DNA from: Alphaproteobacteria bacterium
GTDB taxonomy: Bacteria; Pseudomonadota; Alphaproteobacteria; Bin95
Length of the DNA stretch: 64,000 nt
Direction: 5' to 3'
Assembly: GCA_964291285.2 (NCBI GenBank)
Contig: OZ219788.1
Span: 192,001 to 256,000 of the forward strand
Within the stretch, counting starts at the first letter, position 1. Each line of letters begins with the position of its first letter. The translations under genes were made by a program, and so were the position numbers. This document shows, piece after piece, positions 43,175-64,000 of the stretch. Under the pieces are notes generated by a model. It did not search any database, was not told the DNA's origin, and saw only the letters and a program-made list of their open reading frames with translations.

Positions 43175-43202
43175 AGCTTCCCGTTCTTCCCCCCCCCCCC
43201 AC

Positions 43203-43232: not shown

Positions 43233-43360
43233 CTCATGCGGGCAGGTTCGAGTCTCGCCGCGGCGCATACGGGAGTGGGAGCGAGGCTGGAAAGCGGGTG
43301 AACCGCGCGAGGAGGAGAGGGAGCCCGCTCGCGCACCCGTCACGCGACCCGGAGAACCCG

Positions 43361-43588: not shown

Positions 43589-43961
43589 CGCAAGGGCGGG
43601 CAACGGCGCCTCCCGCTCCGGCGCCGTGCCGGGCCGAAACGACGATGGGGTCCGTGCAGGGCGAGAGAAATACGCCACCCCGCTGTGATCTCCAATCGTG
43701 TCACACGTGCTCGCGACAGCAACCCCTGCGGGGTCCTCCGGTCGCTCCGCTCCCTGCGGCCCGGGCAAGAAGCTCCAAGGGCGGACCGTGAAAGTCGACG
43801 ACCGTGAAGATCGCAGGGCGATCTTCCGCACCATCGCCGACTTTCCGCACCACTCCGCCCCAAGAGCTTCTACGCCCGGGTGCTTCTGCTGCGCGCGCGT
43901 GCCCCGACAGGACATCACAACGGGGATCGGCCCCGAACGTGAAAACCGAAAGGAAAACGAC

Positions 43962-44888
43962 ATGACCTTCCATACCGATACCACCGAAACCGCAGCACAG
44001 TCCGCAACCGCGATCGTCTGCGACAACGCCGTTCTCTTCGGCGCAACCCCCGAGCGCGACGAGTTCGACACCCGGGAGATCTGGGACCAGGACGAGGCCA
44101 TCACCGCCGTCGCCGAAGCCTTCCGCATCCTCAGCCAGGGCGTCGCGCCCGACGGATACCAGATGGCAGACGAACGCGAACACCTCCTCTGGGGCTTCGT
44201 CAACATGCTCCACGCACAGACACAGCGCCTCGACCGCGCCGCCGACAGGCTCACCCCCGAACTCCAGGACCTCCAGCGCACACAGGACGGCTCCGAGATC
44301 AGGTCGCTGGAACTGGAACTCGTGACCGACCGCGCACAGTGCCTCACCGCACGCCGCGACGCCTTCGAGACCCTGCGCAACGAGGCCGCCGAAGCCTACC
44401 GCGCAGACACCGGCGACACTTGGCGGCCCCGGCGCGGCAGCCACGCCAGCCAGACCGGACATCTGACCTCCGCTGCCATCGACGCCCGCGACTTCGTCCG
44501 CGCCCGAAAGGACCGCAAGACACAGGCTCACCTGCCCCAGGGAACCCTCGTCGCCATCGCAGGCGGAAAGGACATCGCAAACCCGGCGGCGGTCATCGAG
44601 CGCCTCGACAAGGTCCGCGCCAGGTATGCCGACCTCGTGCTCGTGCATGGCGGCGGCCCCGGCGTCGAGAAGATCGCCGCAAGCTGGGCAGAGCGCAACG
44701 GCGTCCACCAGGTCGTCTGCAAGCCCGACTGGGACCGCCACGGTCGCGCCGCACCCTTCCGCCGCAACGACGAACTGCTCAACCTCCTGCCCAAGGGCGT
44801 CATCGCCTTCCCCGGCTCCGGCATCACCGAGAACCTCGTCGACAAGGCGAAGCAGCTCGGCATCCCGGTGATGAAGGTAGCAGCCTGA
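43962..44888 (+). CDS. DUF2493 (YspA-like SLOG) domain protein
   Basis: C-terminal AIAGG, LVHGG..G.E.IA..WA, PDW..HG.AAPFRRN, FPG.GI. Confidence 0.85.
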   Translation: MTFHTDTTETAAQSATAIVCDNAVLFGATPERDEFDTREIWDQDEAITAVAEAFRILSQGVAPDGYQMADEREHLLWGFVNMLHAQTQRLDRAADRLTPELQDLQRTQDGSEIRSLELELVTDRAQCLTARRDAFETLRNEAAEAYRADTGDTWRPRRGSHASQTGHLTSAAIDARDFVRARKDRKTQAHLPQGTLVAIAGGKDIANPAAVIERLDKVRARYADLVLVHGGGPGVEKIAASWAERNGVHQVVCKPDWDRHGRAAPFRRNDELLNLLPKGVIAFPGSGITENLVDKAKQLGIPVMKVAA

Positions 44889-45526
44889 CCGCAACGCATC
44901 GCGGGCCGTGTCGTCGCTCCGGCGGCGGCACGGTCCGTTTCCTCTTTCGCACATCGATGACGCGGCAACGCCAACCTCGCGCGCTTCGCGCCGCACTCGT
45001 GCTCCGGCTTCGCCGATCGCGCTTGCGTTCCGCGTCCGCGTCACGCGCCGCTGCACCATGCTTCGCCCGGGTGCATCGCCGTCCGCGCCGATCCCGGCGC
45101 ACCGCCCGCCGCACTTCCGCCAGCGTGACTGTCGACGGCACTGCCGGCGCTGCCGCCCGTCCGCTCGGCACGGTGCTTCGCACCAGTGCCCGCGCTCGCG
45201 CCGGCGAGGCCGTCCGCTCACACGCCGCGGCGGCTCCCCTCCGCCGCTCTCGCCAGCGTCGATTTCCCCATCGTGAATGCTATCCCTTCCGGCTCTGTCT
45301 CGACGGCGGAGCCGCTATTTCGTCACACCCGACGCATCCTTGATGCAGGGAGCGAGGCCCGGCCGGCCTGCATCGGTCGGCAGTTTTCCGTTGCGTGACA
45401 GACGGTTGGGCCTGATCCGCCCTGTGGCCGCGATCCCCCGCGCGGGTCGCGTTGTCCGTTCAGGAGCGCCGTTCCGTTCCCCCGGGACGGACGGCGCCCG
45501 AGGGAACAGACAACGGAGACACGCCC

Positions 45527-46663
45527 ATGCGCATCCATGCCCCCGTCAACGAGCGGACGGTCCGCCGCACCTTCAGGGAGAAGAAACCCGGACGATACGG
45601 CCTGACCGTCATCGACAGGGACCTGCCCGCCTTCGGCTTCACCGTCGCCGGGAACGGAACGAAGACCTTCTTCGTCCGGACCTCACGCCAGTTCGGCGCG
45701 CCCAGGGCGATCCTCGGCACGACCGACGACATGACCGCCGCCGAGGCGAGGGAGAAGGCCATTGCCGCCATCGCCGAAGCCAAAGCCGACCGCGAGACCG
45801 GGCCGCTGTTCGCCGACTTCGCGGCCGACTTCATGCGCCGCCAGGGGCGGCGCTGGAAACCCTCCACGAGGAAGGCCAACGCCCATCTGATCGAGCGCCG
45901 CCTCCTGCCCTTCTTCGGCGCGATGCCCGTCGCGAAGATCGACCGCGCCGATGTGCGGCGCTGGTTCGATTCCCTCAGCGGAACCCCCGGCAGCGCCAAC
46001 CGGACCCTGCCGGTGCTGTCGGTGATGATGCGGCAGGCGGAGCTGTGGGACCTTCGCCCGCAGGGCTCCAACCCCTGCCGCAACATGCGGCGCTACAGGA
46101 CGGCGCCGCGCGAGCGGTTCCTGTCCCTGGACGAGTTGAAGCGCCTCGGCTTCGTCCTCGACCATGCCGAGGACCGGCAGGCCGCCGCCGCCATCCGCCT
46201 GCTGCTGTTCACCGGCGCCCGGTCGTCCGAGATCGCCGGCCTGCAATGGGACTGGATACGGGACACCCGCGCGGTGTTGCCGGACTCCAAGACCGGACCG
46301 AAGGCGCTCCAGCTTCCCCCGCCCGCGCGGGCCGTCCTGAATGGCCTGCCGCGCGAGGGACGCTTCGTCTTCCCGAACGGGAAGGGCGACGGCCCGATGA
46401 CCGACCTCGGCCTGCGCTGGCAGAAGCTGCGCGGTCTCGCCGGGCTGGACGATGTGCGCATCCACGACTGCCGGCATACCTTCGCCTCCCATGCCGTGAT
46501 GAGCGGCCTCGACCTCTACACCGTCGGCCGCCTGCTCGGCCATGCCGATACCGCCTCCACCGAACGCTACGCCCATCTCGCCGACAAGCATGTCCGCGAG
46601 GCGGCCGGGCGCATCTCCGGCATCGTCCACGAGGCCATGACCGGGAAGGAGAGCGGGCGATGA
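45527..46663 (+). CDS. tyrosine recombinase/integrase (first of a tandem pair)
   Basis: TGARSSE, SKTG, HDCRH, LLGH, TERY. Confidence 0.92.
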   Translation: MRIHAPVNERTVRRTFREKKPGRYGLTVIDRDLPAFGFTVAGNGTKTFFVRTSRQFGAPRAILGTTDDMTAAEAREKAIAAIAEAKADRETGPLFADFAADFMRRQGRRWKPSTRKANAHLIERRLLPFFGAMPVAKIDRADVRRWFDSLSGTPGSANRTLPVLSVMMRQAELWDLRPQGSNPCRNMRRYRTAPRERFLSLDELKRLGFVLDHAEDRQAAAAIRLLLFTGARSSEIAGLQWDWIRDTRAVLPDSKTGPKALQLPPPARAVLNGLPREGRFVFPNGKGDGPMTDLGLRWQKLRGLAGLDDVRIHDCRHTFASHAVMSGLDLYTVGRLLGHADTASTERYAHLADKHVREAAGRISGIVHEAMTGKESGR

Positions 46664-48009
46664 GCGGCGGCAGGCATCGTGTCCGGCTCACCGTGAAGGC
46701 CGTCGCCGCCGCCAAGCCGGCGGAACGGGAATACACCCTGTGGGACAATCTGCTGGCGCATTTCGGGGTCAGGGTGCAGCCCTCCGGCGTCCGGTCCTGG
46801 ATCGTCCAGACCCGCGTCCGGGGACGCATGCGCAAGATCACCCTCGGGCGCTTCCCCGAACTGCCTCTCGACGCGGCGCGCCGGGAAGGCGCGGCCGTGC
46901 TCGCCCGCCTGTGGGGCGGCGAGGACGTGACGCCGCCGCGCAAGGAGAAGGCGCCGCTGTTCCGGGACTTCGCCGCCCGTTACCGCTCGCGGCGGAAACA
47001 CCGCTGGAAGCCGTCCTCGCTCAAGACCTTCGATAGCTACATGAAGAACCGCCTGATGCCGCATTTCGGCAGGCTCCGGCTCGACGCCATCGACCATGCC
47101 CGCGTCTCGGCATGGTTCGACGCCGCCAGCGCGGACAGGCCCGGCGCCGCCAACCGCGCCTTCGAGATTCTCCGCGCCATGCTCGGGACGGCCCGGCAGT
47201 GGGGCGACATCGGCGAGCATGTCCCCGACGCCTGCGCCAACATCGTGAAGAACCCCCGCAAGCCTGTCGCGCGCTACCTCAGCCGCGAAGAACTGGAGCG
47301 TCTCGGAGCGGTGCTCGACCGCCACCGGGAGCAGCACCCCTGGCCGGTGGCGGCCATCCGGCTGCTGACCCTGACCGGAGCGCGGCTCTCTGAAGTCATC
47401 AACCTCAGGTGGGACGAGATCGGAGAGCTGGGCGGAGACGGCGCGAGCGCGCGCATCGAAGACTCCAAGACCGGCCCGCGCACCATCTGGCTCGGACCCG
47501 AAGCGGCAAGGCTGGTCGAGGCGCTGCCGCGACCGGATGGCCGGGAGCGGGTGTTCCCCAAGACCCTCACACCGGCAAGGCTCTACACCTTCTGGTGCGG
47601 TATCCGCGACGAGGCGGGGCTTCCGGGCCTTCGCATCCACGACTGCCGCCATACCTGGGCCTCGCAGGGCGTCATGAACGGCGTCGGGCTCACCACCGTC
47701 GGACGGCTGCTCGGTCACCGCAAGCGGGAGACCACCGCGATCTACGCCCATCTCGACGATGGCGCGCTGCGCGACGCCGCCGCCCAGGCCGCGGGCGTCA
47801 TCGCGCGAGCGATGGGGTACAGGGCGGAAGCGCCTCCGCTGCCGGACAAGGCGGAACACGGCGACGTATTGGCCGCAGCGCCCGGGCTCCCGGGTCCCGG
47901 AAAGCCAACCGCGCCAGAGAAGGAGCGGATTCCTCTTCGTGGCAGATCCCGGGATCCGGAGCGATCGGATGCAAGCATCCGCCGAAGACCGCAGGGTATC
48001 GAGATCTGA
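46660..48009 (+). CDS. tyrosine recombinase/integrase (second of a tandem pair)
   Basis: ATGA overlap; WD....FGVRVQPSG, TGARLSE, SKTG, HDCRH, LLGH, TAIY. Confidence 0.92.
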   Translation: MSGGRHRVRLTVKAVAAAKPAEREYTLWDNLLAHFGVRVQPSGVRSWIVQTRVRGRMRKITLGRFPELPLDAARREGAAVLARLWGGEDVTPPRKEKAPLFRDFAARYRSRRKHRWKPSSLKTFDSYMKNRLMPHFGRLRLDAIDHARVSAWFDAASADRPGAANRAFEILRAMLGTARQWGDIGEHVPDACANIVKNPRKPVARYLSREELERLGAVLDRHREQHPWPVAAIRLLTLTGARLSEVINLRWDEIGELGGDGASARIEDSKTGPRTIWLGPEAARLVEALPRPDGRERVFPKTLTPARLYTFWCGIRDEAGLPGLRIHDCRHTWASQGVMNGVGLTTVGRLLGHRKRETTAIYAHLDDGALRDAAAQAAGVIARAMGYRAEAPPLPDKAEHGDVLAAAPGLPGPGKPTAPEKERIPLRGRSRDPERSDASIRRRPQGIEI

Positions 48010-48129
48010 GCTTGTGGCGAGCGTGGAGCCGATCGGGGAGGGTCAGGCAGGGTCTTTGCCATGCGCCCCGATCAGGTTGCCGGTTGTCCCGCCAGTTACA
48101 GGGAAAGGGCCCGTCGAGCCGGCTCTGCG

Positions 48130-48540
48130 GGCTCGTCGTTCATGCCGGCAATGTTCAGGACCGCGACGGAGCCCCGGCCGTGCGGAAATCGATCCGCCAT
48201 GCCTGCCCCCCGCCTTCGCGGGGGCAGGCTCCTGGCTGCGCCATCTGTTCGCCGACGGCGGGTATGCCGGGCCGAAGCTGCGCGGCGCCTCGACAGGATC
48301 GGCAAGTGGACGCTCGAGATCGTCAAGCGGTCGGTCATCGCAAGCGGCTTCGAAAGCCTCTCTGGACGATGGGTCGCCGGACGCACCTTCGCGTGGCTCG
48401 GACGCTGCCGCAGGTTGGCGAAAGACCGGGAGAAATCCATCGCCTCAAGCGAAGCATGGATCGAAATTGCTCACATCAGGCTTACAACACGGCGCCTCGC
48501 AAGGCCCTGTAATCCTTGAAGGAGTTTCAAGTCAGGTTCC
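48130..48540 (+). pseudogene. degenerate IS5-family (IS1031-like) transposase 3' remnant
   Basis: H.GNVQDRDGA, WLRHLFADGGYAG, RWV..RTFAWL.R.RRL.KD spread over three frames. Confidence 0.8.
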
Positions 48541-48635
48541 GAGGCGGACGCGCCTGTCGAATGGCAATCAGCATTCTGTTGGATTTTAGAACATTCTTAT
48601 GCCATATTGTATGCAAATAAGACATGGAGGCTCCA

Positions 48636-48980
48636 ATGGCACCTGTTACGACACTCGAGCCCAAGACCGTACCGGCATTCCCTGCCGGGGAAATCGAGGC
48701 CTGTATCCGCGACGTCCTGGCGGACACAGGCGCGATGCAGGTGGCGCTGCACGGCGGCGCAACACCAGCAGGCGACCCGGGCAGCGCGGTCGGTCCGCAG
48801 CCGGTGATCGATTCGCTGGTCGTTGTGGAAGTGCTGCTTGAAATCGAGCCGAAAGTACCGTTCGCGCTTCCCGACAGTCTGGTACAGGCGGGCGGTTACG
48901 ACAATGTCGATGAGGTCGTGCAGCATCTTGTGCCACAACTGGAGCGGCGGTGGCGCAAGCATCATGAGGAGAAAAATTGA
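48636..48980 (+). CDS. acyl-carrier-protein-like small protein
   Basis: IDSLVVVEVLLEIE matches the ACP helix II DSL motif; GGAGG RBS. Confidence 0.6.
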   Translation: MAPVTTLEPKTVPAFPAGEIEACIRDVLADTGAMQVALHGGATPAGDPGSAVGPQPVIDSLVVVEVLLEIEPKVPFALPDSLVQAGGYDNVDEVVQHLVPQLERRWRKHHEEKN

Positions 48981-49372
48981 TGGCGGACAAAAGTAGGCAA
49001 GGCGAAACCTGGAGGGACGAAACGATTGACCGGCAACAGCTTGGCGCGCGTTTGCGCGAGGCGCGAGAGTACTTGGGCCTATCACAGGATGAAGTAGCAA
49101 AGTACCTCGGGATTCCGCGAACGGCGTTGTCGCATATCGAAAGCGGTCAGCGCCGCCTCGACGCGCTGGAACTGAAAAAGGCTGCGCATCTGTATAAGCG
49201 CCCCATTGCCCATTTCACCGGAGAGGCAGAAGCTGATGCAAGCCTGCCTGACGACATCGCCCATCTGGCGCGTGCCGCTGCCGGCTTTTCGGAAAGGGAT
49301 CGCCAGGAATTGAGCCGGTTTGCCGACTATCTGCGGGCACGCGCGCAAAGCGAGGGGTCCTCGGATGGCTGA
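48980..49372 (+). CDS. XRE/Cro-family HTH regulator
   Basis: LREARE.LGLSQ.EVA..LGI.R.ALS.IESG.R; TGATG coupling. Confidence 0.92.
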   Translation: MADKSRQGETWRDETIDRQQLGARLREAREYLGLSQDEVAKYLGIPRTALSHIESGQRRLDALELKKAAHLYKRPIAHFTGEAEADASLPDDIAHLARAAAGFSERDRQELSRFADYLRARAQSEGSSDG

Positions 49373-50381
49373 CGTCCGCAATGCCATTTTGCGCGGCAAA
49401 CGCGCGGCCGGCCGGTTGCACCGAGCGTTAGGAATGCGGGAGCGTGTCGAAGCGGAAGGCGGCCGGATCGACGTGTTCGACACGATCATTAAATCGGGTG
49501 TGCCGCTTTTGTTTAAGCCGCTAGAAGGATTGCTCGGCGTTTTCATCAATGAGCCGATGCCCGGTGTCATGGTGACGACGAAGCGGGGACTCAGTATTCA
49601 GCGCTTCACCGGCGCTCATGAGCTGGGGCATTGCGTCCTTGATCATCGTCCGAGTCTTGATGATGAGTCGATTTTGCGACGGTCGCCGTTCAATACCACG
49701 CCGGATTACGAGCAGCAAGAACTCGAAGCGGACGCATTCGCCACGGAGTTCATGATGCCGCCTTGGCTGTTCGTGGCGCATTTCCTGCGACACGAGTGGA
49801 CGCCTGCGTTGATGGCGGATCCGCTGATGGTCTATCAACTCTCGCTGCGGATCGGTACGAGCTATGAGGCCACATGCCGGTCATTGATGCGGCCCGGCGT
49901 TGCCGTGATACAGAAGAACACGGTCGATAACCTGCTCCGTGTGCAGCCCAAGGCCATCAAGAAAGCGTTGCTCGGAGACTATGAACCGCCCGACTGGCGG
50001 CGGGATGTCTGGCTGCTGACGAAAAATGACGAAGGTGCCGTCATTGAGGGCAGCCGTTCGGACCTCTTTGTGCTCAAGTTGAAAGAACACAGCGGGTCCG
50101 GCTATGTCTGGACCTTCGACGAACTCAACGAAGCGGGCTTTGCCATTGTCCGCGACGAGCGTGAGGGACCGGACGGCGAAACAATCGGCGGGCACGTGAT
50201 GCGGTCGATTACGGCGCGCTCCGAAGGACCGCAACAGGGACGAATGGCACTTGCAGAGCGGCGCCCATGGCTTGCCGAAGGCGCACCACTGGCCTCATTC
50301 TGCGTCCACTATGACCTGAGCGGGCCGCAAGATGAAGGGATGTCGCAAGCCGAGCGGCGGCGTCTGCTGGGGGCCGCCTGA
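49365..50381 (+). CDS. ImmA/IrrE family metallopeptidase with C-terminal chagasin/I42-like domain
   Basis: RFT.AHELGH and E.EAD.FA...LMP-like motifs; C-terminal L.EHSGSGY.W ... IGG ... RRPW. Confidence 0.85.
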   Translation: MADVRNAILRGKRAAGRLHRALGMRERVEAEGGRIDVFDTIIKSGVPLLFKPLEGLLGVFINEPMPGVMVTTKRGLSIQRFTGAHELGHCVLDHRPSLDDESILRRSPFNTTPDYEQQELEADAFATEFMMPPWLFVAHFLRHEWTPALMADPLMVYQLSLRIGTSYEATCRSLMRPGVAVIQKNTVDNLLRVQPKAIKKALLGDYEPPDWRRDVWLLTKNDEGAVIEGSRSDLFVLKLKEHSGSGYVWTFDELNEAGFAIVRDEREGPDGETIGGHVMRSITARSEGPQQGRMALAERRPWLAEGAPLASFCVHYDLSGPQDEGMSQAERRRLLGAA

Positions 50382-51082
50382 TGGAGGTTACGGTCGAGTG
50401 TGACCTGCGTCATTTGTTCGGCCCGGCGCGCGATCAAGGTATGCGGCCAACCTGCATGGCCTTCGCGGCAAGCGACGCCCACGCGGCAGCCCGGCCGGGT
50501 TGGGTTCCACTGTCGTGCGAATACGCCTATTTCCATGCACTGAAACGGGACGGGGGCATCCCAGATGACGGGACAACGCCCGATGCTATGCTGACGGCGA
50601 TCAAAGAGGACGGGCAGCCACCAGAGACGGCTTGGGCGTACCTGCCGCGCATGCCAGCCGACTTTACGCTATGGAAGCCGCCCGAAAGCGTCAGCCCTAT
50701 CTACCGGCGTGCCAACGCCTATGACCGCGCATCACTCGCGGCAATCCGCACAGGGCTAGATGCCGGAGTACCGATGATCACAACGATGTGTCTGTCCGAT
50801 GCATTCTTCCAGCCCGACCCGGACGGCATTATCGACGCATGCGAGCCACCCGACCCGCAGCGGCGGCACGCGATTATCGCGGTCGGCTATGGCACTCGGA
50901 GTGGCAACCGACTGATCCTTGTACGGAATAGCTGGGGCACGGACTGGGGCGCCGATGGTTATGCGTGGGTAAGCGAAAGCTATCTTGTACCCCGTTTGTA
51001 CGATTTTGCAGAAATGAAAGAGGATCTGACGAGTGTACCTGCCGATCCCAACGCAGCCAACGTGCGCAACAGCGTGGCTTGA
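50381..51082 (+). CDS. papain-like C1 family cysteine peptidase
   Basis: DQG.RPTC.AFA (oxyanion Q, catalytic C), HAIIAVGYG (H), RNSWG..WG..GY (N); no signal peptide. Confidence 0.92.
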   Translation: MEVTVECDLRHLFGPARDQGMRPTCMAFAASDAHAAARPGWVPLSCEYAYFHALKRDGGIPDDGTTPDAMLTAIKEDGQPPETAWAYLPRMPADFTLWKPPESVSPIYRRANAYDRASLAAIRTGLDAGVPMITTMCLSDAFFQPDPDGIIDACEPPDPQRRHAIIAVGYGTRSGNRLILVRNSWGTDWGADGYAWVSESYLVPRLYDFAEMKEDLTSVPADPNAANVRNSVA

Positions 51083-51842
51083 GGCCTTGGTGGCTGTCGA
51101 CAAGGTGCCCGGCCACGAAGCGCACAATGTGATTATCGACGTGGCCGAGCCGCTGGCGCAGACCGCTGCCGACGCGCGCATGATAAAGGTCGCCGACGAT
51201 TTCTTACGTGGCCGTGGCGCAATGCCCCTGCAATCCGTGGCGAATACGATCTTCCCGGAGGGTCTATACCGGCGGCACGGCGCGCCTGCTCTCTATCACG
51301 TGTATGGACAGGTTTACCAGCAGGTAAAGAAGAAGCAAGGCGATTGGGGCCGGTATTTTGAACGGATGATTCGCCGCCCGACTACAAACGGCAAGAACAT
51401 CAATCCTCTCGCCGACATGATTGCGAAAATGACGCAGCATGTTCACGGTGGCGGCAAAACGTTCCGCAACATATACGAGTTGACCGTTTCCGATCCAGCT
51501 CTCGATGTGCCCATCTATGATCCCGAACGTGATGCCGGGCCGGTGATGAACCGACAGTGCATGAGCTTCCTGAGCTTCAAGCTTGATCATGAAAACCGCA
51601 TGATGCTGACCGCCTTGTACCGGAACCACTATTACATCGAACGGCTGTTCGGCAATCTGATTGGCCTCGCTCGGCTGATGGCTTTCGTTGGGCGCGAGGC
51701 CAATGTGCCGGTTGGTCCGCTGACCGTCATCTCCACCCACGCCGAAATCGACACGCGGCGCGGCTGGAAACGCCACGATATCAAAGAGCTAATCGCTGCG
51801 TGTCGGGAAGCCACAGCTCAAAAGGTGAGCGTCGTCGCGTAG
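51033..51842 (+). CDS. divergent thymidylate synthase-like protein
   Basis: QCMSFLSF...L.ALYRNH...LFGN..GL..L...G.L..ISTHA parallels the TS PC/YQRS/PFN/H motifs. Confidence 0.65.
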   Translation: MYLPIPTQPTCATAWLEALVAVDKVPGHEAHNVIIDVAEPLAQTAADARMIKVADDFLRGRGAMPLQSVANTIFPEGLYRRHGAPALYHVYGQVYQQVKKKQGDWGRYFERMIRRPTTNGKNINPLADMIAKMTQHVHGGGKTFRNIYELTVSDPALDVPIYDPERDAGPVMNRQCMSFLSFKLDHENRMMLTALYRNHYYIERLFGNLIGLARLMAFVGREANVPVGPLTVISTHAEIDTRRGWKRHDIKELIAACREATAQKVSVVA

Positions 51843-51846
51843 GCGA

Positions 51847-52497
51847 TTACCTGCCTGCGCTGGCGGTGCAACGTACGCCGTAGAGGTCGCACATGCTGTG
51901 AATGAACTCCTTCTGTCCACCATAACTCGGATGCCGCACGGCGGTCGACGCAAGATCAAGGTGGGAGAGCGCTTGCTGCGCATCGCGGCCTATGGCGACG
52001 AGGCGCCGGGGCCGGAGCATCTGCATCAGGGTCAACAAAAGATCGCGGAACACGTCCCTCTCCGCGCGCGTATGACGGCGATTGGAAAGGGGCTCGCCAG
52101 TCTCGAAGGGATGAAGCGGGAACACGTTCCACAGGAAGATTGGCCTGTCGATTTGGGTGAGCACCTTCCAGACGATGGCCGCCGTACGCTCGGCCATTGG
52201 TGGCCCTTTCGTCGCGCGTGAGATCGACACACCGTAAATCTCTCTGAATGTCTGCAGGTGAATATCGTCCGTGAGCGGCAACCCGGTCCGGCGTCCGCCA
52301 CGATAACCCAGATCGCGCGCAAGCCAAATTGAGTCCACTTCTTCATCCGCAATAGCTTCAAGAAAAGCGCACAAATTGGCGTGCCGCCTTTTCGGAGCGT
52401 CAGCGCGATCATGGACCGGACAAACATCGCTGTACGGATTAAAAACAGCGTCGAGATGGACGCCGCTCAAGGCCTCGACAAGGGCGGACGGTTTCAT
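51847..52497 (-). CDS. uracil-DNA glycosylase superfamily protein
   Basis: FNPY, GYRGGRRTG.P.TD, WNVFP.HP, SNR, VA.GR.A, VRHPSYGG. Confidence 0.85.
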   Translation of the reverse strand: MKPSALVEALSGVHLDAVFNPYSDVCPVHDRADAPKRRHANLCAFLEAIADEEVDSIWLARDLGYRGGRRTGLPLTDDIHLQTFREIYGVSISRATKGPPMAERTAAIVWKVLTQIDRPIFLWNVFPLHPFETGEPLSNRRHTRAERDVFRDLLLTLMQMLRPRRLVAIGRDAQQALSHLDLASTAVRHPSYGGQKEFIHSMCDLYGVRCTASAGR

Positions 52498-53729
52498 GCG
52501 GGCAACCTCTCAAAGGTTATGGTTCGTTCATTCAGATCGGCGATAACACTACCGCGTCTGTGCTCGCGTAGCGCACGAAACACTTCATAGCCGCTCAGGA
52601 TTGCCTCTTCCCATAGCCAGAGCGGGCAGCGCTCCGGTTCATATCCGGTGACGAGCGCCCGCGCATTTTTGAGAAGGCCGTAATCGACACCGCTTAAATT
52701 CTCGAAAAAATTCACCTGCGTAGCGTGATTGAATATCCAGGTCGCAACACCTTCCTCAATCAGTATGGCGCGAGCTCCGTCCTCGGCCTCATCGATCTCG
52801 GGACGGCTTTTGCGCTTGACCCGAAAGAGCGCCCGCATGACCGGGGACCACCCCAGTTTGGCCGCGTAAGCAAGATGGAAAACATCATGGAAGCAATAAT
52901 CGTCTTTTTCCAGCTTGTTGTCGGTAAGCCGGTCACCGACATTGATGCCATTGCAGCGCAGAAAAACATACATCTTTTTTTTCACCGTCTTCTCGAAAAT
53001 CTGCATCTCGATACGCCGCGGAATCTGCTCCCCGGAATCGTATTCGTCGTCGAAGAGCGGCGGATAGATGCACTTCAGTGGCCAGCGGTCGTAAATCTTG
53101 GAGAGATTGCGATGCGCGGCTTCGCCCAAGCTGACGCCGACGTTGTTAGCAGCTTTTATAATAGTACGGAATACAGCTTCCATGTGGTCCGAAAGGCCAC
53201 CGGACCCGTCCGCGATTTGACTTGCCGAAAAATCGGCGATCAGTTTGCCAACCTCGCCGGCCAAACGTATGAGCGTTGTCTCGAACACGGCTTCGGCGTC
53301 CGGTCCTGAGACCGACAACGTTGGCTGAAGCATTGAAAAGGTGATGTCTGGCACGCTATCGTTGGAACCGCCGTCACTGATGCGGCTGGCGAGCACTGGA
53401 AGCGTGATCTGTGCCCGGCTGGCCAAGCGGGAGAAATACCAAAGGACGTCCCCCAACTCTTCGATGACTGACTGCTGGTAACCGAAATAAGAATCGGAAT
53501 CGCGCTGCTTCTTCTTAAGTTCAGACAGCAGGCTTCCTGCCTCGCCAAACAGACCTAGCAGAGGGAAAGAAATTCCCTCGGGCATCCGGTCTGTACCGCA
53601 GGACAGGGTTTGATATTGCGCGAGAGTGAGTTCGCAATAGGGAGCTCTCAGAACTGCCTCAAGCGCACCTGACATTTTGTCGCGGTGCTCCGCAGAGTTC
53701 TTGCTCTCGCCGAAACGGAGGTTCGCCAT
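52494..53729 (-). CDS. MazG-like nucleoside triphosphate pyrophosphohydrolase with MazG-C-type C-terminal domain
   Basis: LGLFGEAG...ELKK, EELGDVLWY; second degenerate MazG repeat; C-terminal D.Y.FHD.FHLA...LGWSPV.R....KRKS....DE.EDGARA; GAGG RBS at MANL start. Confidence 0.85.
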   Translation of the reverse strand: MANLRFGESKNSAEHRDKMSGALEAVLRAPYCELTLAQYQTLSCGTDRMPEGISFPLLGLFGEAGSLLSELKKKQRDSDSYFGYQQSVIEELGDVLWYFSRLASRAQITLPVLASRISDGGSNDSVPDITFSMLQPTLSVSGPDAEAVFETTLIRLAGEVGKLIADFSASQIADGSGGLSDHMEAVFRTIIKAANNVGVSLGEAAHRNLSKIYDRWPLKCIYPPLFDDEYDSGEQIPRRIEMQIFEKTVKKKMYVFLRCNGINVGDRLTDNKLEKDDYCFHDVFHLAYAAKLGWSPVMRALFRVKRKSRPEIDEAEDGARAILIEEGVATWIFNHATQVNFFENLSGVDYGLLKNARALVTGYEPERCPLWLWEEAILSGYEVFRALREHRRGSVIADLNERTITFERLPA

Positions 53730-53829: not shown

Positions 53830-54723
53830 CTACTCTCGTCTGGCACCGAAACCACCGACGATGCCGCGTTTCTCGAAGGCGCCCGCGGCTTCGGCATGGT
53901 TCGGGCCGTGGAAGCCGCCCCGGATGATATCCCCCGAGGCTCCGGAACCGAATGTGCCGTCCGCGCCGACCGGAACGTCGTCGAAGCTGACGGCGTCGAC
54001 GGGCCAGGCATTGCCGTTCGCATTATCCCGGATGTTGCCGATCGCCACGTCGATCGTGCCGGCCGCAGCGCTCCAGGAGAGAGTCGCGTCCCCGGCCAGG
54101 CGGGTTCCGGCCGCGGCTTCCTCGACTGCCGTCCCGACCATCCGCCCGGTCCATGTCGCGCTGGCCGGCGGTCGCGACCCTGTCAGGTCTCTGCCCGCAA
54201 ACCCGAAGCGCGTCATCGGCTGCCCGGGTTCTTCGGCCACGCCGAACACGCTGTGCGTCATCCAGTAGCCGTAGGTTCTCCGGTCGCCGGACCGGTATTG
54301 GAAGTCGGTTGCACCGTTGCGGGCGGCGCCCCTGGCGACGCCTGAAATATCCGCAGGGAACAGGTCGGAGATCGTCCGGGCCGGGGGCGCACCCTCACCG
54401 GTCCACAGGCAGCGGGCCCGGGCGCATGTGGCCGTCGCGACAGGACTGCTTCCGGCATGGGCGCCGGTCGCGACGAGGGTATCCGCGCGCCGGGCGAAGT
54501 CCCGGGCACGCGCCTTTTGCTCCTCCGGACCCTCCGACCCGGACGGATCGACGCCGACTACCTCCCTGGCGACATGATCGCCGAAGTCGCCGCCCAATTT
54601 CTTGAAATCGGAACCGGAGCAGGCGCCCAAAGTCAGCAGGAGGGCTGCCGCAACAGCCCCGGAAGGACCGGATATTCGGGCCTTCCGCCGGCAAAACAGG
54701 TATGGCGATCCGGTGCTGCACAT
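53830..54723 (-). CDS. putative lipoprotein with TbpB-like C-terminal beta-barrel
   Basis: Lipobox LTLGAC; ATW.G.MVG, G.F.GPNH.E.AG.F....G.FGA terminus; start uncertain. Confidence 0.65.
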   Translation of the reverse strand: MCSTGSPYLFCRRKARISGPSGAVAAALLLTLGACSGSDFKKLGGDFGDHVAREVVGVDPSGSEGPEEQKARARDFARRADTLVATGAHAGSSPVATATCARARCLWTGEGAPPARTISDLFPADISGVARGAARNGATDFQYRSGDRRTYGYWMTHSVFGVAEEPGQPMTRFGFAGRDLTGSRPPASATWTGRMVGTAVEEAAAGTRLAGDATLSWSAAAGTIDVAIGNIRDNANGNAWPVDAVSFDDVPVGADGTFGSGASGDIIRGGFHGPNHAEAAGAFEKRGIVGGFGARRE

Positions 54724-55873
54724 GCTGTGGCTCCTCCCTGTCCGTATCACGGAAGCAGCGCGTTGTGGGCAAATGCCCGATGTGCCGGGATAGCGCCGAC
54801 CCACCTCGCGATCCGCCTGGCGGTCACGGTCGCTCTCCGACCGACTGTTCCCGCAGTTCCGCAAACGGACAGGGAAGGCCCGCAATGATGGCAACGGTCT
54901 CCACGCTGACCTGCACGATGCGGCACAACGCCGGGATGAGGTCACGCGGGTCGTCGAACCAGCCGTTGGGGTCATTGACGATGCCGCTCTGCCGGTCGCG
55001 GACGATACGGTAACGGTCGATCAGCCATTCGAGCGGGGTGCGCCCGTTTACCCGATACTCGTGTGCTTGCGGGGGGATGCCCGACAGGCGGACCAGGTCG
55101 TTGACGATGAGAACGGTCCGGTCCGCGTCGGCAAAGCGCATGGCGCGCTGGCCGAGCCGGAATTGCGTCGGCGCAGGCTCGCCTTTCCCGGCATAGTCGA
55201 GCCGCAGCGGATATTCCTCGCAGGTCTCGTAGCCGAGATGCAGCGCCGCGAGGCGGCGGCCGGCCTCGGCGAAGGCATGGAAATCGCCGGCGAGCGGAAT
55301 GCGCGGCAACTCCTTCGTCAGGTCGTTGGCGAAACGCTCCCGGTATGAGGGCGCATGCAGGACGCCATAGACATAGTCGAAGATCGCGTCCTTCGTTATC
55401 GTGCTGTCGCCGTAGCGCACCCGGAAGGCGCGCAACGCGGTGTCGGCAATGTTGTCGATGCACGTCGGCGGCGGTCCCATGCCGGGCAGGCTCTGCTGGT
55501 CGTCGTGGCGCTCATAGCGGTATCGCGGGAAGCACTGGCCGAAAGCGACCAGATGGAGGTCCGGCATCGTATCGACGACCAGTGCGGAGAACGGCTTGGT
55601 CGAGCCGACCCCCGGGACGCAGATCGCGCGGTTCCCGGTCTCGGCGGTGGGGAAGATGCTGTCCTGCTGGTACTTGTTGTTGACCAGGACATAATCGACA
55701 TAACAGTGCTGCTTGATGAATGGTCGGTATTGCGTCTCCCAGACATTACCTTGCGAATAAGCGACCTCCTTACGTCGCCGGAGGTTGTTTTTGAGTTCCC
55801 GATCCCATCGAACACCTGCCGAATGGCGATTCGCGATCTGCTCCACGGTTTTATCGGGATCGTCGTTTTTCTT

Positions 55874-57812
55874 GAGGCGTGTGCGCTGTTTGGAAGTGCT
55901 TTCTGAGCAAGGCATTGCGGAGGGTCTGGATTTTTCTTACCCCGTCAGGATGGCTGATTTCCGGGGTTTTTGCGGTTTGAAGGGAAAGGTTTTGTGGATT
56001 TCCACCCCATGGCCGTGCGCGGGCTGGTTTTCGGGCGCGTCGCGTTGAGGCGCGGGACTGAGTAGAAGGTGTCGCCATCGGGCCTGCGGCCCTTGTTCCA
56101 TCCACCGGCGCTGGTTGGGAGAACGTGATGGCGACAGCGGAGAAGTTAGCCTTTTCGTGGTGGTCTGTGGAGGGCCTTGCGGACCTTGAGCGTCTGCGTG
56201 TGGTGCTCGACACGCTTCCCGACGAGAAGGTTGTGGCTGCGCTTGAGGCGGGTCGAGGCCGGGGTCGCAACGACTACCCGGTGCGGGCGATGTGGCGGGC
56301 TCTGATCGCGGGGATCGTGTTCCAGCATGCCTCGATGCAGTCGCTGCTGCGTGAGCTGGGCCGCAACCCGGCATTGCTTGAGATTTGCGGGTTCGAGGCG
56401 CTGCCCTTGCAGGGTGCGCCGGTGGTGGCGCTTTGCGCAGGGCGCGCGGTGAGGCGTCCGGCGCCGTTGCGCTCGACGGTGCCGGGCGCCTGGAACTTCT
56501 CGCGGTTCCTGGGGCGCGTGGTGCGCCTTGAGGACGAGCGCGGCCTTGTGTCGGGGATGATCGGGCGTCTGCGCGCCTCGCTGTTCGAGGAGTTGCCGGA
56601 CTTCGGTCGCCATCTCGGCTACGACGGCAAGGCGGTGGCGAGCCACTCGACGGGCCGGGTTGCCGGGGCCAGGGGGCAGACCTCGGACCCCGATGCGGAC
56701 TGGGGCAGGCACGAGACGGGCGGGGTGAACGCGAAGACCGGCGCGGTGTGGAAGAAGGTGAAGTCGTGGTTCGGCTACGGGCTGCACCTGATCGCCGACA
56801 CGGACCACGAGGTTCCTGTGGCCTTCGAGGTGACGCGGGCGTCGGCATCGGAACCCGGGGTGCTGTCCGGGATGCTGGAGGAGTTGTTCGCCGAGGCGCC
56901 GGAGATGGCCGGGCGCTGCGCCGATTTCAGCGCCGACCGCGGTCTCGACAACGCCCGCCTGAAGGCGCGGTTGTGGGACAGGTGGCATATCCGCCCGCTG
57001 ATCGACACGCGCCTGATGTGGCGGGTCGAGAAGAAGGAGCCGGGCCATGACCCGGCCCGGCCGATCACGCGACCGCTGTTCCCCGGGCGCGCCGACGTCA
57101 TCGTTCATGACGAACGCGGCCGGGTGTCCTGCGTGTGCCCGCAGACCGGCGAGGTCCGCGCCATGGCCTTCCAGGGGTTCGAGGTCGGGCGCGGCGTCTG
57201 CGGCACGCTCAAATACCGCTGCCCCGCAGCCGCCTTCGGCTTCGAGTGCAAGGGACGCCGGGCCTGCCATCGGGCGGGTGGGGTGAAGTCCGGCGAATAC
57301 GGCCGCATCCTGCGCGTCGACCTCGACAGCCATGACCGGCGTATCTTCACGCCCACGCCCTGGGGCAGCCCGTCATGGCGGCGCGGATACAACCGGCGCA
57401 CCGCCATGGAGCGGATCAACGCCCGCCTCGACCGCAGCTTCAACTTCGAGACCCATTACATCCGCGGACGCGCGAAGATGAAGACCCGCATCGGGCTGGC
57501 CCTGGCGGTCATGATGGCCATGGCGCTTGCACAGGCCCGCGCCGGACGCGTCGCACGCATGCGCTCCCTGGTCGGCCCGGCGCCATACCTCGATACCGGC
57601 TGACCCCTCAGCCGACTGCCGACAACGCTGACCCAACCCGCCGGACCCCGGCATACGGACAAACGCGACCGAAGGCCGGCGATGCTGCCGGGCTGGGCCG
57701 CTCAAGTTCGAAAAGCAACCGCGGCGACCGCCTCGAACGCCGGAACAAACAACATCAACACCCGGACCCAACGTCCCATCCGACCGGAAAAACCCCACAG
57801 CGCAAATTTCTC
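55874..57812 (+). mobile_element. IS1182-like DDE insertion sequence, copy 1 (1939 bp)
   Basis: Ends GAGGCGTGTGCGCTGT / ACAGCGCAAATTTCTC; 5-bp TSD TTCTT. Confidence 0.88.
56125..57603 (+). CDS. transposase (DUF772-type N-terminus, DDE)
   Basis: GR.DYP..AM, DGK, DPDADWG, FGY.LH, ADRG.D, Y.RR...ER.N. Confidence 0.88.
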   Translation: MMATAEKLAFSWWSVEGLADLERLRVVLDTLPDEKVVAALEAGRGRGRNDYPVRAMWRALIAGIVFQHASMQSLLRELGRNPALLEICGFEALPLQGAPVVALCAGRAVRRPAPLRSTVPGAWNFSRFLGRVVRLEDERGLVSGMIGRLRASLFEELPDFGRHLGYDGKAVASHSTGRVAGARGQTSDPDADWGRHETGGVNAKTGAVWKKVKSWFGYGLHLIADTDHEVPVAFEVTRASASEPGVLSGMLEELFAEAPEMAGRCADFSADRGLDNARLKARLWDRWHIRPLIDTRLMWRVEKKEPGHDPARPITRPLFPGRADVIVHDERGRVSCVCPQTGEVRAMAFQGFEVGRGVCGTLKYRCPAAAFGFECKGRRACHRAGGVKSGEYGRILRVDLDSHDRRIFTPTPWGSPSWRRGYNRRTAMERINARLDRSFNFETHYIRGRAKMKTRIGLALAVMMAMALAQARAGRVARMRSLVGPAPYLDTG

Positions 57813-60800
57813 TTCTTGAAATCGCGCAGCGCCGCCTGATAGTCTTCCACCATCCGCCGCGCGTTCTCCGCACAAGCGTCGCGGGAGAAACTGTAAATGT
57901 AGGCGTCCCGGCTGGTCGCCAACCCCCTCGAATACAGCCGGAACACCGCCTCGTCCGTTCTGCCCGCCTTCGCCGTCTTCGATCCCAGGGGATAGAGCGC
58001 CCGGAACGCCTCGTTACGCTGGCCGATCCAGTCGTGGTGCCGGTCGGGGGCGGTCTCCTCCCAGTCCGTGACGCCGGCGATCGACCCCCACTCGCGCAAC
58101 AGCCCCAACTTGTCCTCGCGGGAGAGATAATCGCCGATGTCGCGGTAGAGGATGCGGCAGCCGTCATGCTGCGCGTCCGGATTCTTCGCGAGGACGGCGA
58201 TCGCGACCGGCGCCCGGGACCCTTGGCCGAAGGCGTTATCGCCTTCCGAGCGGCGGCGTTCCCCCGATGTCCGGGCATTACCCCGCAGGTTCACCACATG
58301 GATCGACGAGAACTCCTCCGCCAGGCAGGCGCGGACGCCGGAGTCGACATTGCCGTCGATCCAGGAACCGTTGGTCACGAAGGCCACGACGCCCCGGTCG
58401 CCGATGCGGTCCGAGGCCCAGCGGATTGCCATCTTGTATGTATCGTAGAGACTGTTCTTCAGCGTTGCCGTGGAGCGGGCGGCATAGGTCTCGGCGACGC
58501 GCTGCTCGATTTCCGGATAGCTCACATTCGGGTTGTCATCGGCCGAACTCCGCTGTCCCGCGGACCAGGGCGGGTTGCCGACGATGACCTGGATGGGCAG
58601 TTGCTGCTGGCGTTCGGCGCGTTCGCTGTTGCCGGGCAGCCAGTCCTTCGGGAAGCCCGAGCGCCCGGTATGCAGGTTGAAGGTGTCGGTGAGCACGATG
58701 CCGCCGAAGGGTTCATACTCTTCATTGTCGCCGACCCGGCCGTGGAACGCCTCCTCGATATGGATGGCGGCGATGTAGTAGGCGAGCAGGACAAGCTCGT
58801 TGGCGTGCAACTCCTCCCGGTACTTGCGCCCGAGGTCGGCATCGCGAAGCAGCGCCGACTGCAACAGCCGGACCAGGAAGATGCCCGTCCCGGTAAAGGG
58901 GTCGAGGATGTGGACACCCTTGTCGCTCAGGCCCCGGCCGAACTCCTCGCGCGCCACATGGTCGGCGCTTGCGAGGATGAAGTCCACGATCTCGACCGGC
59001 GTGTAGACGATGCCAAGCCGGTCCGCTTCCTTCTTCATCGCCGTCGCGAAGAACTTCTCGTAGAGTTCCATCAGCACGCGCTGGCGGGCTTCCGGGTTGT
59101 CGAGCCCGCGCGCCCGCAGCCTTACGCTTTCGTAGAAGCGGTCCAGGTCACGGGTTTCGTTTTCCAGCCCGAATTCGCCGAAGTCGCGCCGCAGCGCATC
59201 CAGCGCCCGGGCGACCGGGTTGCCGCCAGCGAAGTCGTAACCCTCGAACAGCGCCTCGAACACCGGACGAGTCAGGATGTGCTGCGCCATCATGTCGATG
59301 GCGCTCTCGGTCGTGATCGATTCGTTGATAGAGACCTTCAACTCTTCGTGGAACGCCTCGAACCACTCGCTCAGGGTCTCGTTGCCGGGGTCGGCAAGCA
59401 GGCCGCCGATGCGCGTCACGAGGCGTGAGAAGATATCCGCGACATCCTTGGCCCAGCTTTCCCAGTATCTGCGGTCGCCGCATTTCTCGACGATCTTCGC
59501 GTAGATTGCGCCGGGTGGCAGATCGAGAGGGGGGAACGCAAGCTCGGGCGAGTCGGGGATGACCTCCCCGTTGACGCCATCCCGGCTGAAGATGATCCGA
59601 TCCGTCGGCCGGTCGTTCAGATCGATCTGGTTAATCTCGGCGTCGAAACGGTCGTCGTGCGAGCGCAGGGCGCGCAGGACGCTCCAGACGACATCGAACT
59701 CCTTGCCGCTGTCGAGCACCAGGACCGGATCGCGCCCCTCCGGCACCGCGATCGGGAGCACGATATAGCCGTAGGTCTTGCCTTCGGCCTTGCGCATGGC
59801 GCGGCCCACGGCCTGGACAATGTCGACAGTGCTCCGGCGCTCGGTCATGAAGATCACCGCGTCGAGCGCCGGCACGTCGATCCCTTCCGACAGGCACCGG
59901 GCGTTCGAGAGGATGCGGCAGCCGCCCTCTGTCGTCCCTTTCAGCCATTCGAGACACGCCTTGCGTTCAAGGGCGTGATGCTGTCCGTCCACATGCCGCG
60001 TCTCGCACCGGAGCGCCGCGCGCCGTTCAGCTTCCGGCAATAGTGCGGCGGCCTGCTCGACGAGACCGCTCCAGTGCTGAGCCAGAAGTTGCGACGACCT
60101 GATCCGGTCGGTAAACGCGATCGCGCGGCGAAGCGGCCGGCCGGGACCGTCTTCCGGCCGCCGGTTTTCCGGATCCTGCAGGACCCGCCAGCAGCCGACG
60201 ATCCGGGCGACGTCGCTCAGGTTGACCGCGCCGTCCGACGAGGCGAGGTGGGCCTGCAACGCCCTGTCCACATGGCTCTCCGACAGGGCGAAAATGGCGA
60301 CCCTGTAGTCCGACAGCAGACCCTGCTCGATGGCCCGGGAGAACGGGAGGCGGTGGAACTCCGGCCCGTAGGTCGCCTCGTCGTCCATCGAGAAGACGTC
60401 GACGCCATGGCTTGCGGCTTTCGTCTTCGCCCCTTCGGTATAGAGCCTCGGCGTTGCCGTCATGTAGAGGCGCCGCGCGGCCCGGATACGACCGGCGTCG
60501 TGCACGAGGACGAAGGGCGAGGTCTTGTCGCCGGGGCGCTCGATCCCCGTCGTCCGGTGCGCCTCGTCGCAGAGGACCAGATCGAACGGCGGAGCACCTT
60601 CGTCCTGCGCCTGCGCGACGAGGCCGATCGAATGGTAGGTGCAGAACACCGCGGTCATCGCATCCGGCGACGCAAGTTGCAATGCCTGGCCGATGGCGCC
60701 CGGATCGGTGGTCACGGGGATTTCCAGCTCCAGGAACGAGGCGTCCTCGTCGGCGCGCCCCGCGCGGGTATCCGAGCAGATGCCGACATAGCGGTGCGCC

Positions 60801-63982: not shown

Positions 63983-64000
63983 CGCATTCCACCTCGATTA

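Follow-up and report, generated by a model that had tools for sequence, protein, structure and literature searches.

Described systems closest to the cassette

Cleavage of a repressor by its M78 partner protease is established for ImmA/ImmR, IrrE/DdrO and CapP/CapH, the last of which regulates cyclic-oligonucleotide-based anti-phage signalling systems (CBASS) and other defence systems. Here we describe a seven-gene cassette in which a gene pair of this appearance is combined with predicted nucleotide- and base-processing enzymes, identified in the genome of an Alphaproteobacteria bacterium (GTDB lineage Bin95) on contig OZ219788.1 of assembly GCA_964291285.2. The window, by which we mean the whole stretch of 64,000 nucleotides that was analysed (positions 192,001 to 256,000 of the contig), holds the cassette at 48636-53729 as seven uninterrupted open reading frames (ORFs), in which no frameshifts or internal stops were seen. 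Five of these form one arm on the forward strand and encode a protein resembling acyl carrier proteins (ACPs; g1), a putative repressor of the XRE helix-turn-helix (HTH) type (g2), an M78 peptidase with a chagasin-type inhibitor domain (g3), a papain-family C1 peptidase (g4) and a thymidylate-synthase-like (TS-like) protein (g5). The remaining two form a second arm on the reverse strand and encode a member of the uracil-DNA glycosylase (UDG) superfamily (g6) and a MazG domain fused to MazG_C (g7). An initial annotation of the window had put these genes forward as an undescribed defence system.

The cassette resembles CapH/CapP, as well as ImmR/ImmA and DdrO/IrrE, in placing an XRE HTH gene before an M78 gene with a HEXXH motif and in having an operator-like dyad, but differs in that its M78 protein bears a chagasin domain, a carrier-protein gene precedes the pair, and cleavage of g2 by g3 is putative. 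Nor does the cassette appear to belong to CBASS, as PADLOC found no CD-NTase or other CBASS component among the seven proteins beyond the capH- and capP-like ones. Pairs of chagasin (I42) and papain (C1) offer a second point of comparison. As expected of such a pair, both domains score above their Pfam cut-offs, retain their loops and catalytic set, and co-occur strictly; unlike other such pairs, the inhibitor is here fused to an ImmA/IrrE peptidase and the protease has neither prodomain nor signal peptide.

Defence centred on thymidylate has been shown in E. coli in the DefensePredictor study (Science 2026; PMC13092281), which, in the part of it that concerns us, reports validated systems with TS, 5-hydroxymethyldeoxyuridine (5-hmdU) kinase, dNMP kinase and NMAD domains. 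These systems share the theme of the cassette but have other gene content, and NCBIfam 20, which contains at least one DefensePredictor model (DS9_1), assigns no anti-phage name to any of g1-g7. Closer in vocabulary are the eight predicted, unvalidated systems of Fig. 6F in the same paper, which include MazG, MazG-C ('predicted nucleotide kinase'), UDG, HTH and aGPT-Pplase and are matched by the stand-alone MazG_C pairs described below; the text and legend of that figure, which we compared by description only, do not mention a C1 peptidase, chagasin, ImmA, TS or a carrier protein. Brig1 and Brig2, as outlined in a preprint (bioRxiv 10.1101/2025.10.29.685425; see also PMC11078745), are UDG-family glycosylases that defend against modified-base phages, with Brig2 protecting against thymidine-modified phages that bear 5-substituted deoxyuridines. 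The likeness to g6 is one of superfamily and of a low-GC mobile setting, and the Brig2 specificity outlined there fits the interchange of g6 with a 5-hmdU-DNA-binding domain. In that outline, however, the Brig proteins act as single genes, whereas g6 is always coupled to MazG/MazG_C. Phage thymidine hypermodification, to the extent that two reports cover it (PMC8989533, PMC5889632), likewise gathers a TS-fold enzyme, a dNTP pyrophosphatase and PF18723 around the C5 position of deoxyuridine, to which the cassette adds a glycosylase, a protease/inhibitor pair, a carrier protein and a repressor switch. Among the cassette proteins the searches detected neither a P-loop 5-HMUDK nor an aGPT-Pplase family, only the PF18723 helical domain in variants, and lacking both families as well as a presence in phage records the cassette does not conform to a phage 5-hmdU hypermodification cluster.

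The initial annotation had recognised no named system in the block, and we likewise found no match in PADLOC 2.0 or NCBIfam 20, while searches of the full text of articles yielded no description of the seven-gene combination. The term 'undescribed' therefore stands for the set of seven genes, but not for its MazG/MazG-C/UDG part, which already figures among the DefensePredictor predictions as they are presented in PMC13092281. The theme, thymidylate-centred enzymes together with a CapH/CapP-type switch, has precedents; we found none for the set of a carrier protein, a putatively chagasin-caged cytoplasmic papain with its inhibitor fused to ImmA, and a non-canonical TS-like protein.

Conservation of the cassette and coherence of its arms

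The cassette is an intact, horizontally mobile seven-gene unit that recurs with little change across many bacterial phyla. Scanning one genome per species for the TS-like protein returned 129 relatives, from which the best 80 loci were taken for family counts with family hidden Markov models; the TS-like family as a whole comprises at least 1,448 clusters at 90% identity. The HTH, M78-chagasin, C1 and TS-like genes are present in fixed order in all 80 loci, accompanied by the ACP-like gene in 79 (L019 being truncated at its start), by MazG/MazG_C in 77 (two of the three misses, L063 and L064, reach a contig edge) and by UDG or HMUDK_hel in 76. The only cassette truly without a MazG arm, L035, has also lost invariant TS residues (e.g. 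His236 is replaced by Arg). Co-occurrence of the genes across genomes, on which the initial annotation had staked its proposal, is borne out by the recurrence of the seven-gene set and order in at least 76 of the 80 independent loci. Catalytic residues are invariant in g3, g4, g6 and g7, as is the Cys motif in g5.

Clustering of flanking ORFs over the same 80 loci revealed no other family in more than 11 of them, and the cassette extends from the g1 promoter to the point where g7 starts. Among its hosts are Alpha-, Beta- and Gammaproteobacteria, Acidobacteriota, Planctomycetota, Nitrospirota and Gemmatimonadota, and the tree of TS-like proteins is discordant with taxonomy. The TS-like gene resides on 25 plasmids, 15 of them conjugative, and g7 homologues on 35 plasmids. 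None of 50,697 phage records contained the TS-like protein; 39 phage records matched g7, none at 80% query coverage and, among the 30 matches listed, none beyond residue 217.

Some cassettes carry further genes or show decay. In 8 loci (L011 at 4892-5536 and seven others) g1 is directly preceded by a dTMP-kinase-like gene, which matches PF02223 (7e-15) and the PADLOC candidate PDC-M51B (2.7e-12), and in a Rhizobium/Mesorhizobium group the cassette is followed by genes for an alpha/beta hydrolase, a caspase-like C14 protein and a 444-aa protein. Decaying copies were seen at L111 (G310:C1:66000-84000) and L007; in such a copy an insertion of ~2.7 kb splits each of the M78-chagasin and MazG genes, and there is a TGA stop in the TS-like gene.

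The relationship between the two arms was examined in an even sample of the class comprising 401 genomes, of which 13 contain MazG_C and 10 the TS-like family. MazG_C is adjacent in 9 of the 10 TS-like genomes, the tenth being a weak match in a 511-aa ORF. Conversely, 5 of the 15 MazG_C genes in this sample belong to stand-alone pairs, formed with UDG in L104 and L105 and with HMUDK_hel in L106-L108, that have no TS-like, HTH or M78 gene nearby, from which it follows that MazG_C plus UDG or HMUDK_hel constitutes an autonomous module. The TS-like arm lacks the MazG arm in only one (L035) of 78 loci with enough flank; g1-g5 is an add-on that hardly ever occurs apart from the MazG_C and reader pair.

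Variants of the cassette bring the arms closer still. In L103, L101 and L143 (a Nostoc plasmid) six genes with overlapping ends lie on one strand in the order carrier-like, HTH, M78, TS-like, HMUDK_hel and MazG/MazG_C, and in L109 all genes from g1 through MazG are co-directional. Protein P0121 is a fusion of TS-like and HMUDK_hel (PF18723) domains, and 15 of 16 longer MazG_C proteins are fusions of HMUDK_hel with MazG/MazG_C, one of which also includes a thymidylate-kinase domain (PF02223). These fusions indicate a joint function of the TS-like, HMUDK_hel and MazG/MazG_C parts. The sixteenth, P0138 (841 aa), joins MazG_C to OLD/TOPRIM-like and AAA ATPase domains (PF20469, PF11398, PF13175, PF13476, PF13304), placing it in a second, defence-like architecture. 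We regard it as highly probable that the seven genes form one functional cassette, composed of an autonomous MazG_C and reader pair and a regulated add-on arm.

Predicted activities of the encoded proteins

The proposed switch comprises g2, g3, g4 and the DNA upstream of g1. The adjacent, overlapping genes g2 and g3 encode, respectively, an XRE HTH protein (HTH_3 in Pfam, 1.3e-13) that matches the PADLOC capH model (4.8e-11), and an M78 protein (PF06114, 1.7e-8, 34.8 bits against a cut-off of 22) that matches the capP model (3.6e-15). In 25 g3 sequences from distant hosts H100, E101 and H104 of the intact HEXXH motif (HELGH) are invariant. The C-terminal domain of g3 belongs to the chagasin type (PF09394, Inhibitor_I42; 5.1e-7, 30.3 bits against a cut-off of 27.2), and its three conserved loops, SGxGYxW, IGG and RRPW (21-25 homologues), are the presumed counterparts of NPTTG, GXGG and RPW in chagasin. 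Upstream of g1, the sequence TGTTGGATTTTAGAACAT (48577-48594) has imperfect dyad symmetry in a promoter-proximal position and falls within an element of ~50 nt that is the sole conserved non-coding stretch 5' of g1 among 7 close relatives, with unrelated sequence beyond it. Dyads of the form TGTC/TGTT-N-GACA/AACA overlapping -35/-10-like hexamers were seen by eye, without a count, 5' of g1 in most of 79 loci, and the element at 48577-48594 is probably the operator of the putative g2 repressor. The HTH plus ImmA/IrrE switch that the initial annotation had proposed thus agrees both with the likeness of g2/g3 to CapH/CapP and with the operator-like promoter element preceding g1.

The g4 protein is a C1 peptidase (PF00112, 5.1e-13, 50 bits against a cut-off of 20.7) in which Q19, C25, H163, N183, S184 and W185 are invariant in 24 sequences, completing the Gln-Cys-His-Asn catalytic set. 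With the catalytic Cys at residue 25 there is no room for a prodomain or signal peptide, which argues for a cytoplasmic protease. The C1 and chagasin domains co-vary: both are present in all 80 main cassettes and in L102 and L109, and both are missing from L100, L101, L103 and L143, whose M78 proteins bear a different C-terminal part. By analogy with the described switches we infer a two-tier arrangement, in which one sensor protein would both cleave the repressor, through its M78 domain, and cage the latent papain-like protease, through its inhibitor domain.

For g1, a small acidic protein (pI 4.67) with no Pfam match at 0.01, a carrier-protein identity is suggested on three grounds. When 21 homologues were searched as a profile against PDB, the listed matches were almost all acyl carrier proteins (best 4.3e-4), and S64 of the invariant Asp-Ser-Leu motif (D63, S64; numbering from 48624) aligned with the phosphopantetheine-bearing serine, which carrier proteins have in a DSL motif at the start of helix II; 7 of the 21 homologues match PF00550 at E<=1 (best 0.0027); and a gene for an AcpS phosphopantetheinyl transferase (PPTase; PF01648, 8e-13 to 4e-18) adjoins 13 cassettes, namely 9 of the 80 main loci along with L101, L102, L103 and L142, in the last of which it lies inside the operon and is annotated in the record as holo-ACP synthase.

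The g5 protein retains the motifs NRQC176LSFLSFKL (with the Cys nucleophile), YR197N, GN208 and STH236A, and C176, R197, N208 and H236 are all invariant in 25 sequences. Its match to the archaeal-type TS model TIGR03283 (1.4e-9, 37.7 bits) lies below the cut-off of 174.55, no match to PF00303 was found at E<=0.01, and a g5 profile against PDB sequences gave chance-level hits only (best 0.033); canonical ThyA, considered as a candidate identity, was set aside for want of a whole-domain family match. A 97-row alignment, holding the 80 main and 6 divergent TS-like proteins together with 11 TS segments taken from metallophosphoesterase fusions, was nevertheless matched by hhalign to 19 ThyA sequences at 82.1% probability (E 1e-5, 112 columns), with C176 aligned to the nucleophile C146, R197 to R166, N208 to N177 and H236 to H207. 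Features of the ESM Atlas homologue P0114 group with TS-family clusters (0.96-0.97). These results support g5 as a divergent TS-fold protein with its predicted catalytic Cys, Arg, Asn and His in register, and, as its N-terminal third fails to align, folate use cannot be asserted. No PF00303 protein was detected in the genome of the window or in 15 genomes of the same genus, so that g5 is not a spare housekeeping ThyA; the cassette TS-like gene is the only TS-fold gene detected in these genomes, and the genus presumably makes thymidylate another way. The ThyA tally over a set of 101 genomes was 27 (G076 included), and locus L122 of genome G076 was excluded from alignment A4. As a separate observation, a 743-aa metallophosphoesterase and TS-like fusion is encoded beside 11 of the 80 cassettes (L022 at 10789-13020, L024, L037, L048, L053, L054, L065, L068, L070, L073 and L083), with matches to PF00149 (6e-11), PF00303 (2e-4) and TIGR03283 (1.9e-13) and a weak likeness, below cut-off, to the NCBIfam DS9_1 anti-phage phosphoesterase (6.6e-16).

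On the reverse strand, g6 matches PF03167 (7.7e-7, 29.7 bits against a cut-off of 24.3) and strongly conserves RDLGYRGGRRTG, WNxFPxHP and RHPSYGGQ; its 53 invariant columns in 22 sequences include RDLGY...TG and HPSYGG, which resemble motifs A and B. The MazG domain of g7 (PF03819, 9.9e-5, 23 bits against a cut-off of 22) finds MazG-like proteins and dCTP pyrophosphatase 1 in PDB (7.6e-6 to 3.7e-4), and its residues E63, K72, K73, R76, E90, E91 and D94 are invariant, with E63, E90, E91 and D94 representing the acidic metal-binding motif. The rest of the protein covers positions 3-188 of the 190 in the MazG_C profile (PF18722, 8.3e-81, 270.5 bits), with ~30 MazG_C residues invariant among g7 homologues. 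We accordingly classify g7, by its domain content, as a predicted all-alpha NTP pyrophosphohydrolase of the MazG type fused to MazG_C. The TS-like, UDG and MazG assignments of the initial annotation are all upheld by these comparisons. UDG as a cassette member fared less simply, as it is present in 54 of the 80 loci and yet is not obligatory, a 333-aa HMUDK_hel protein (PF18723, 2e-104) taking its place in 22. Exchange between the two occurred at least 3-4 times on the TS-like tree (mean of 19.2 in shuffled data, with none of 500 shuffles as low), and on account of these exchanges the two look like alternative readers of one kind of substrate. In many sphingomonad cassettes, the window's not among them, a conserved ORF of ~65 aa ending in DRRKRS lies directly 5' of MazG on the same strand (e.g. 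L141 at 9626-9823 on the minus strand, and L038, L048 and L050 of Sphingomonadales); it is annotated as hypothetical, has no Pfam match, and possibly encodes a small protein that regulates the MazG operon.

Setting and possible function of the cassette

The layout described in the initial annotation, five overlapping forward genes converging on a coupled reverse pair, agrees with our check of the reading frames, and its account of the surroundings also proved accurate (Table 1). Neighbouring genes of the forward arm overlap by 1-50 nt, g7 and g6 overlap by 4 nt, and the ends of g5 and g6 are separated by 4 nt (51843-51846). The cassette is AT-richer than its flanks, with a GC fraction of 0.585 over 48576-53729 (58.5%) against 0.709 at 40000-48000 and 0.665 at 54000-64000 (66-71% overall), and it lies next to two tandem tyrosine integrases (45452-48009) and, close by, a type ISP restriction-modification (R-M) gene interrupted by an insertion sequence (IS). 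The close relative L006 shares this end of the transposase remnant upstream of its own cassette.

Table 1. Features of the cassette and its surroundings, in window positions
Feature	Coordinates	Strand	Remarks
Putative operator/promoter element and g1 ribosome-binding site	48577-48627	+	conserved upstream of g1
g1, carrier-protein-like	48636-48980 (ORF from 48624)	+	ATG 48636 downstream of GGAGG
g2, putative XRE HTH repressor	48980-49372 (ORF from 48977)	+	HTH_3
g3, M78 and chagasin	49365-50381 (ORF from 49320)	+	PF06114, PF09394; homologues begin at ATG 49365
g4, C1 papain-family peptidase	50381-51082	+	PF00112
g5, TS-like	51033-51842	+	TIGR03283 below cut-off; hhalign against ThyA
g6, UDG superfamily	51847-52497	-	PF03167
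g7, MazG and MazG_C	52494-53729	-	PF03819, PF18722
Two tandem tyrosine integrases	45452-46663, 46660-48009		upstream side of cassette
Truncated DDE transposase remnant	48061-48519		immediately 5' of cassette
Type ISP C-terminal specificity domain	54824-55915	-	PF18135, 3e-83
492-aa DDE transposase between type ISP halves	56125-57603	+	
Type ISP N-terminal part	57755-61528	-	Mrr-helicase-coupler-methylase
Second, near-identical copy of the 492-aa transposase gene/IS	61863-63341	+	

Other genes in the vicinity encode a YAcAr/SLOG-family protein upstream of the integrases (43698-44888, +; PF10686, 1e-22), a 381-aa ORF adjoining g7 (53830-54975) that has no family match and is not kept beside other cassettes, and, at the right end of the window, a 105-aa XRE antitoxin-like ORF (63665-63982, -; read by eye) that is probably the toxin-antitoxin gene of the initial annotation. 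As no tRNA was found within 30000-64000, no tRNA attachment site is proposed; a simple scan for sigma-70 promoters and terminators gave no signal above shuffled sequence.

The low-GC insert has integrases, IS elements and a type ISP R-M gene as neighbours, which we read as a conflict context. Taking all the evidence together, we consider it slightly better than an even prospect that the cassette is a system for anti-phage defence or conflict, inducible and gated by a protease, with thymidine or uracil nucleotides or bases as its targets. Under such a mechanism, g2 would occupy the dyad element observed over the g1-g5 promoter until the M78 domain of g3, on a cue of damage or infection, cut the repressor and de-repressed the operon, as in ImmA/ImmR, IrrE/DdrO and CapP/CapH. 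The g4 protease would be made together with g3 and kept inactive by its chagasin domain, a step in keeping with their observed co-variation, and its release would serve as a second, post-translational gate. The chemistry could then be divided between phosphopantetheinylated g1 with the TS-fold g5, attacking C6 of a uracil nucleotide through Cys176, and g7 MazG/MazG_C with a reader of uracil-type bases (the UDG-like g6 or HMUDK_hel). The net effect might be that the thymidine precursor pool is removed or corrupted, or that non-thymine pyrimidines in replicating phage DNA are excised or marked. A more specific version of this scheme, to which we would give only tentative credence, is a new kind of inducible antiviral pathway joining C5-modified deoxyuridine chemistry, reshaping of the dNTP pool by MazG/MazG_C, a reader of non-thymine DNA and the two-tier protease gate. 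Here g1 and g5 would synthesise or capture a deoxyuridine nucleotide modified at C5, perhaps as a carrier-protein-nucleotide adduct through the pantetheine thiol, non-thymine DNA, whether produced in this way or brought in by an invader, would be the target of the UDG or 5-hmdU-DNA reader, and the ImmA-type sensor protease would carry the chagasin cage of a cytoplasmic papain.

A number of observations weigh against the defence reading or parts of it. The absence of a PADLOC 2.0 model for g1 and g4-g7 points to novelty but is equally an absence of support. The g1 protein scores 13 bits against PF00550, whose cut-off is 20.8, and most cassettes, including that of the window, have no PPTase of their own. 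The TS-fold assignment of g5 covers the C-terminal two-thirds only, its N-terminal ~110 residues being unalignable, and a narrower g5 alignment gave the same register with ThyA in hhalign at a probability of just 2.4%. The MazG_C pairs of L104-L108 manage without the other arm, and an operator of the g1 type precedes MazG in only 4 of 73 loci, all from one close group, which leaves control of the MazG arm by g2/g3 unsupported. We therefore dropped co-regulation of the two arms through a shared operator, and the initial annotation's idea of a protease cascade controlling the nucleotide arm is not supported, given the rarity of this operator and the autonomy of the pair in 5 of 15 cases. Finally, on the conjugative plasmid pHSL4 the cassette is situated between relaxase/AbiE genes and VirD4/type IV secretion system (T4SS) genes, beside an LPD7 protein, a location that fits a mobile-element function equally as well as defence.

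Such a function, in which an induced element would rewrite the thymidine of DNA, by C5 modification of dUMP, removal of dTTP or base editing, against restriction or for its own establishment, is a minor possibility. ImmR/ImmA-type switches control the induction of integrative and conjugative elements, and in addition to the pHSL4 position, T4SS coupling-protein genes and ParB-like genes each flank the cassette in 6 loci. The families involved, a TS-type hydroxymethylase, a dNTP pyrophosphatase and a 5-hmdU DNA kinase domain, are also those of phage thymidine hypermodification as it is set out in PMC8989533. The absence of the TS-like protein from the phage records and the partial coverage of the g7 matches there speak against it, as does the absence of detectable P-loop 5-HMUDK and aGPT-Pplase families; moreover, the UDG-type glycosylase of 54 of the 80 loci would excise non-canonical pyrimidines, not introduce them, and with its flanks unconserved the cassette is not tied to transfer genes. 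A slightly smaller chance attaches to two independent neighbours that travel together, g1-g5 being an HTH/ImmA-controlled protease/TS-like unit and g6-g7 a MazG_C and UDG defence pair. The arms are indeed convergent with separate promoters, in keeping with the stand-alone pairs and the scarcity of the g1-type operator 5' of MazG, and DefensePredictor counts such same-strand units, where it presents them, as systems in their own right (PMC13092281). Independence is hard to reconcile, however, with a TS-like arm found alone in a single, degenerate copy, with the adjacency of MazG_C in nearly all TS-like genomes of the class sample, with the single-strand operons and the TS-like and HMUDK_hel fusion, or with a g5/g6-type junction that is kept at a few to ~100 nt across phyla.

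We think it quite improbable that the cassette makes a toxic or signalling C5-modified pyrimidine nucleoside or base, in the manner of a nucleoside antibiotic. A carrier protein with dedicated AcpS in 13 cassettes, a TS-fold enzyme, a glycosylase-fold enzyme and a pyrophosphohydrolase able to supply a monophosphate substrate would suit such a role, as would the dTMP-kinase-like gene upstream in 8 loci and the one fusion with PF02223, but the flanks of the 80 loci contain no conserved adenylation, ligase, export or self-resistance genes, the HTH/M78 switch and caged protease are foreign to clusters of this kind, and the spread is by islands and plasmids over five phyla. Least probable of all is an addiction or stabilisation module, whose protease/inhibitor and nucleotide enzymes would kill element-losing cells in toxin-antitoxin fashion: although the cassette resides on plasmids and integrative islands, pairs an inhibitor with a protease in a way that resembles toxin-antitoxin logic, and on pHSL4 is a neighbour of an AbiE toxin-antitoxin pair, stabilisation would need far less than seven conserved genes and their five intact enzymes, and the inhibitor, instead of being a labile antitoxin, forms one polypeptide with a regulator protease.

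Should the cassette be a defence system, as we favour, it would bring into bacterial immunity a carrier protein, served in some cassettes by a dedicated phosphopantetheinyl transferase, a non-canonical TS-fold enzyme that is not ThyA, and a papain-like protease of the cytoplasm whose caging inhibitor domain is fused to an ImmA/IrrE sensor protease, three elements not yet seen together in that context. It would also provide a testable function for the widespread MazG_C proteins (13 of 401 genomes in the class) and for stand-alone HMUDK_hel proteins. The interchange of UDG and HMUDK_hel suggests phages with deoxyuridine, hmdU or hypermodified thymidine as candidate targets, and the cassette would in that case tie the thymidine chemistry of the cell to immunity against thymine-replacing phages.

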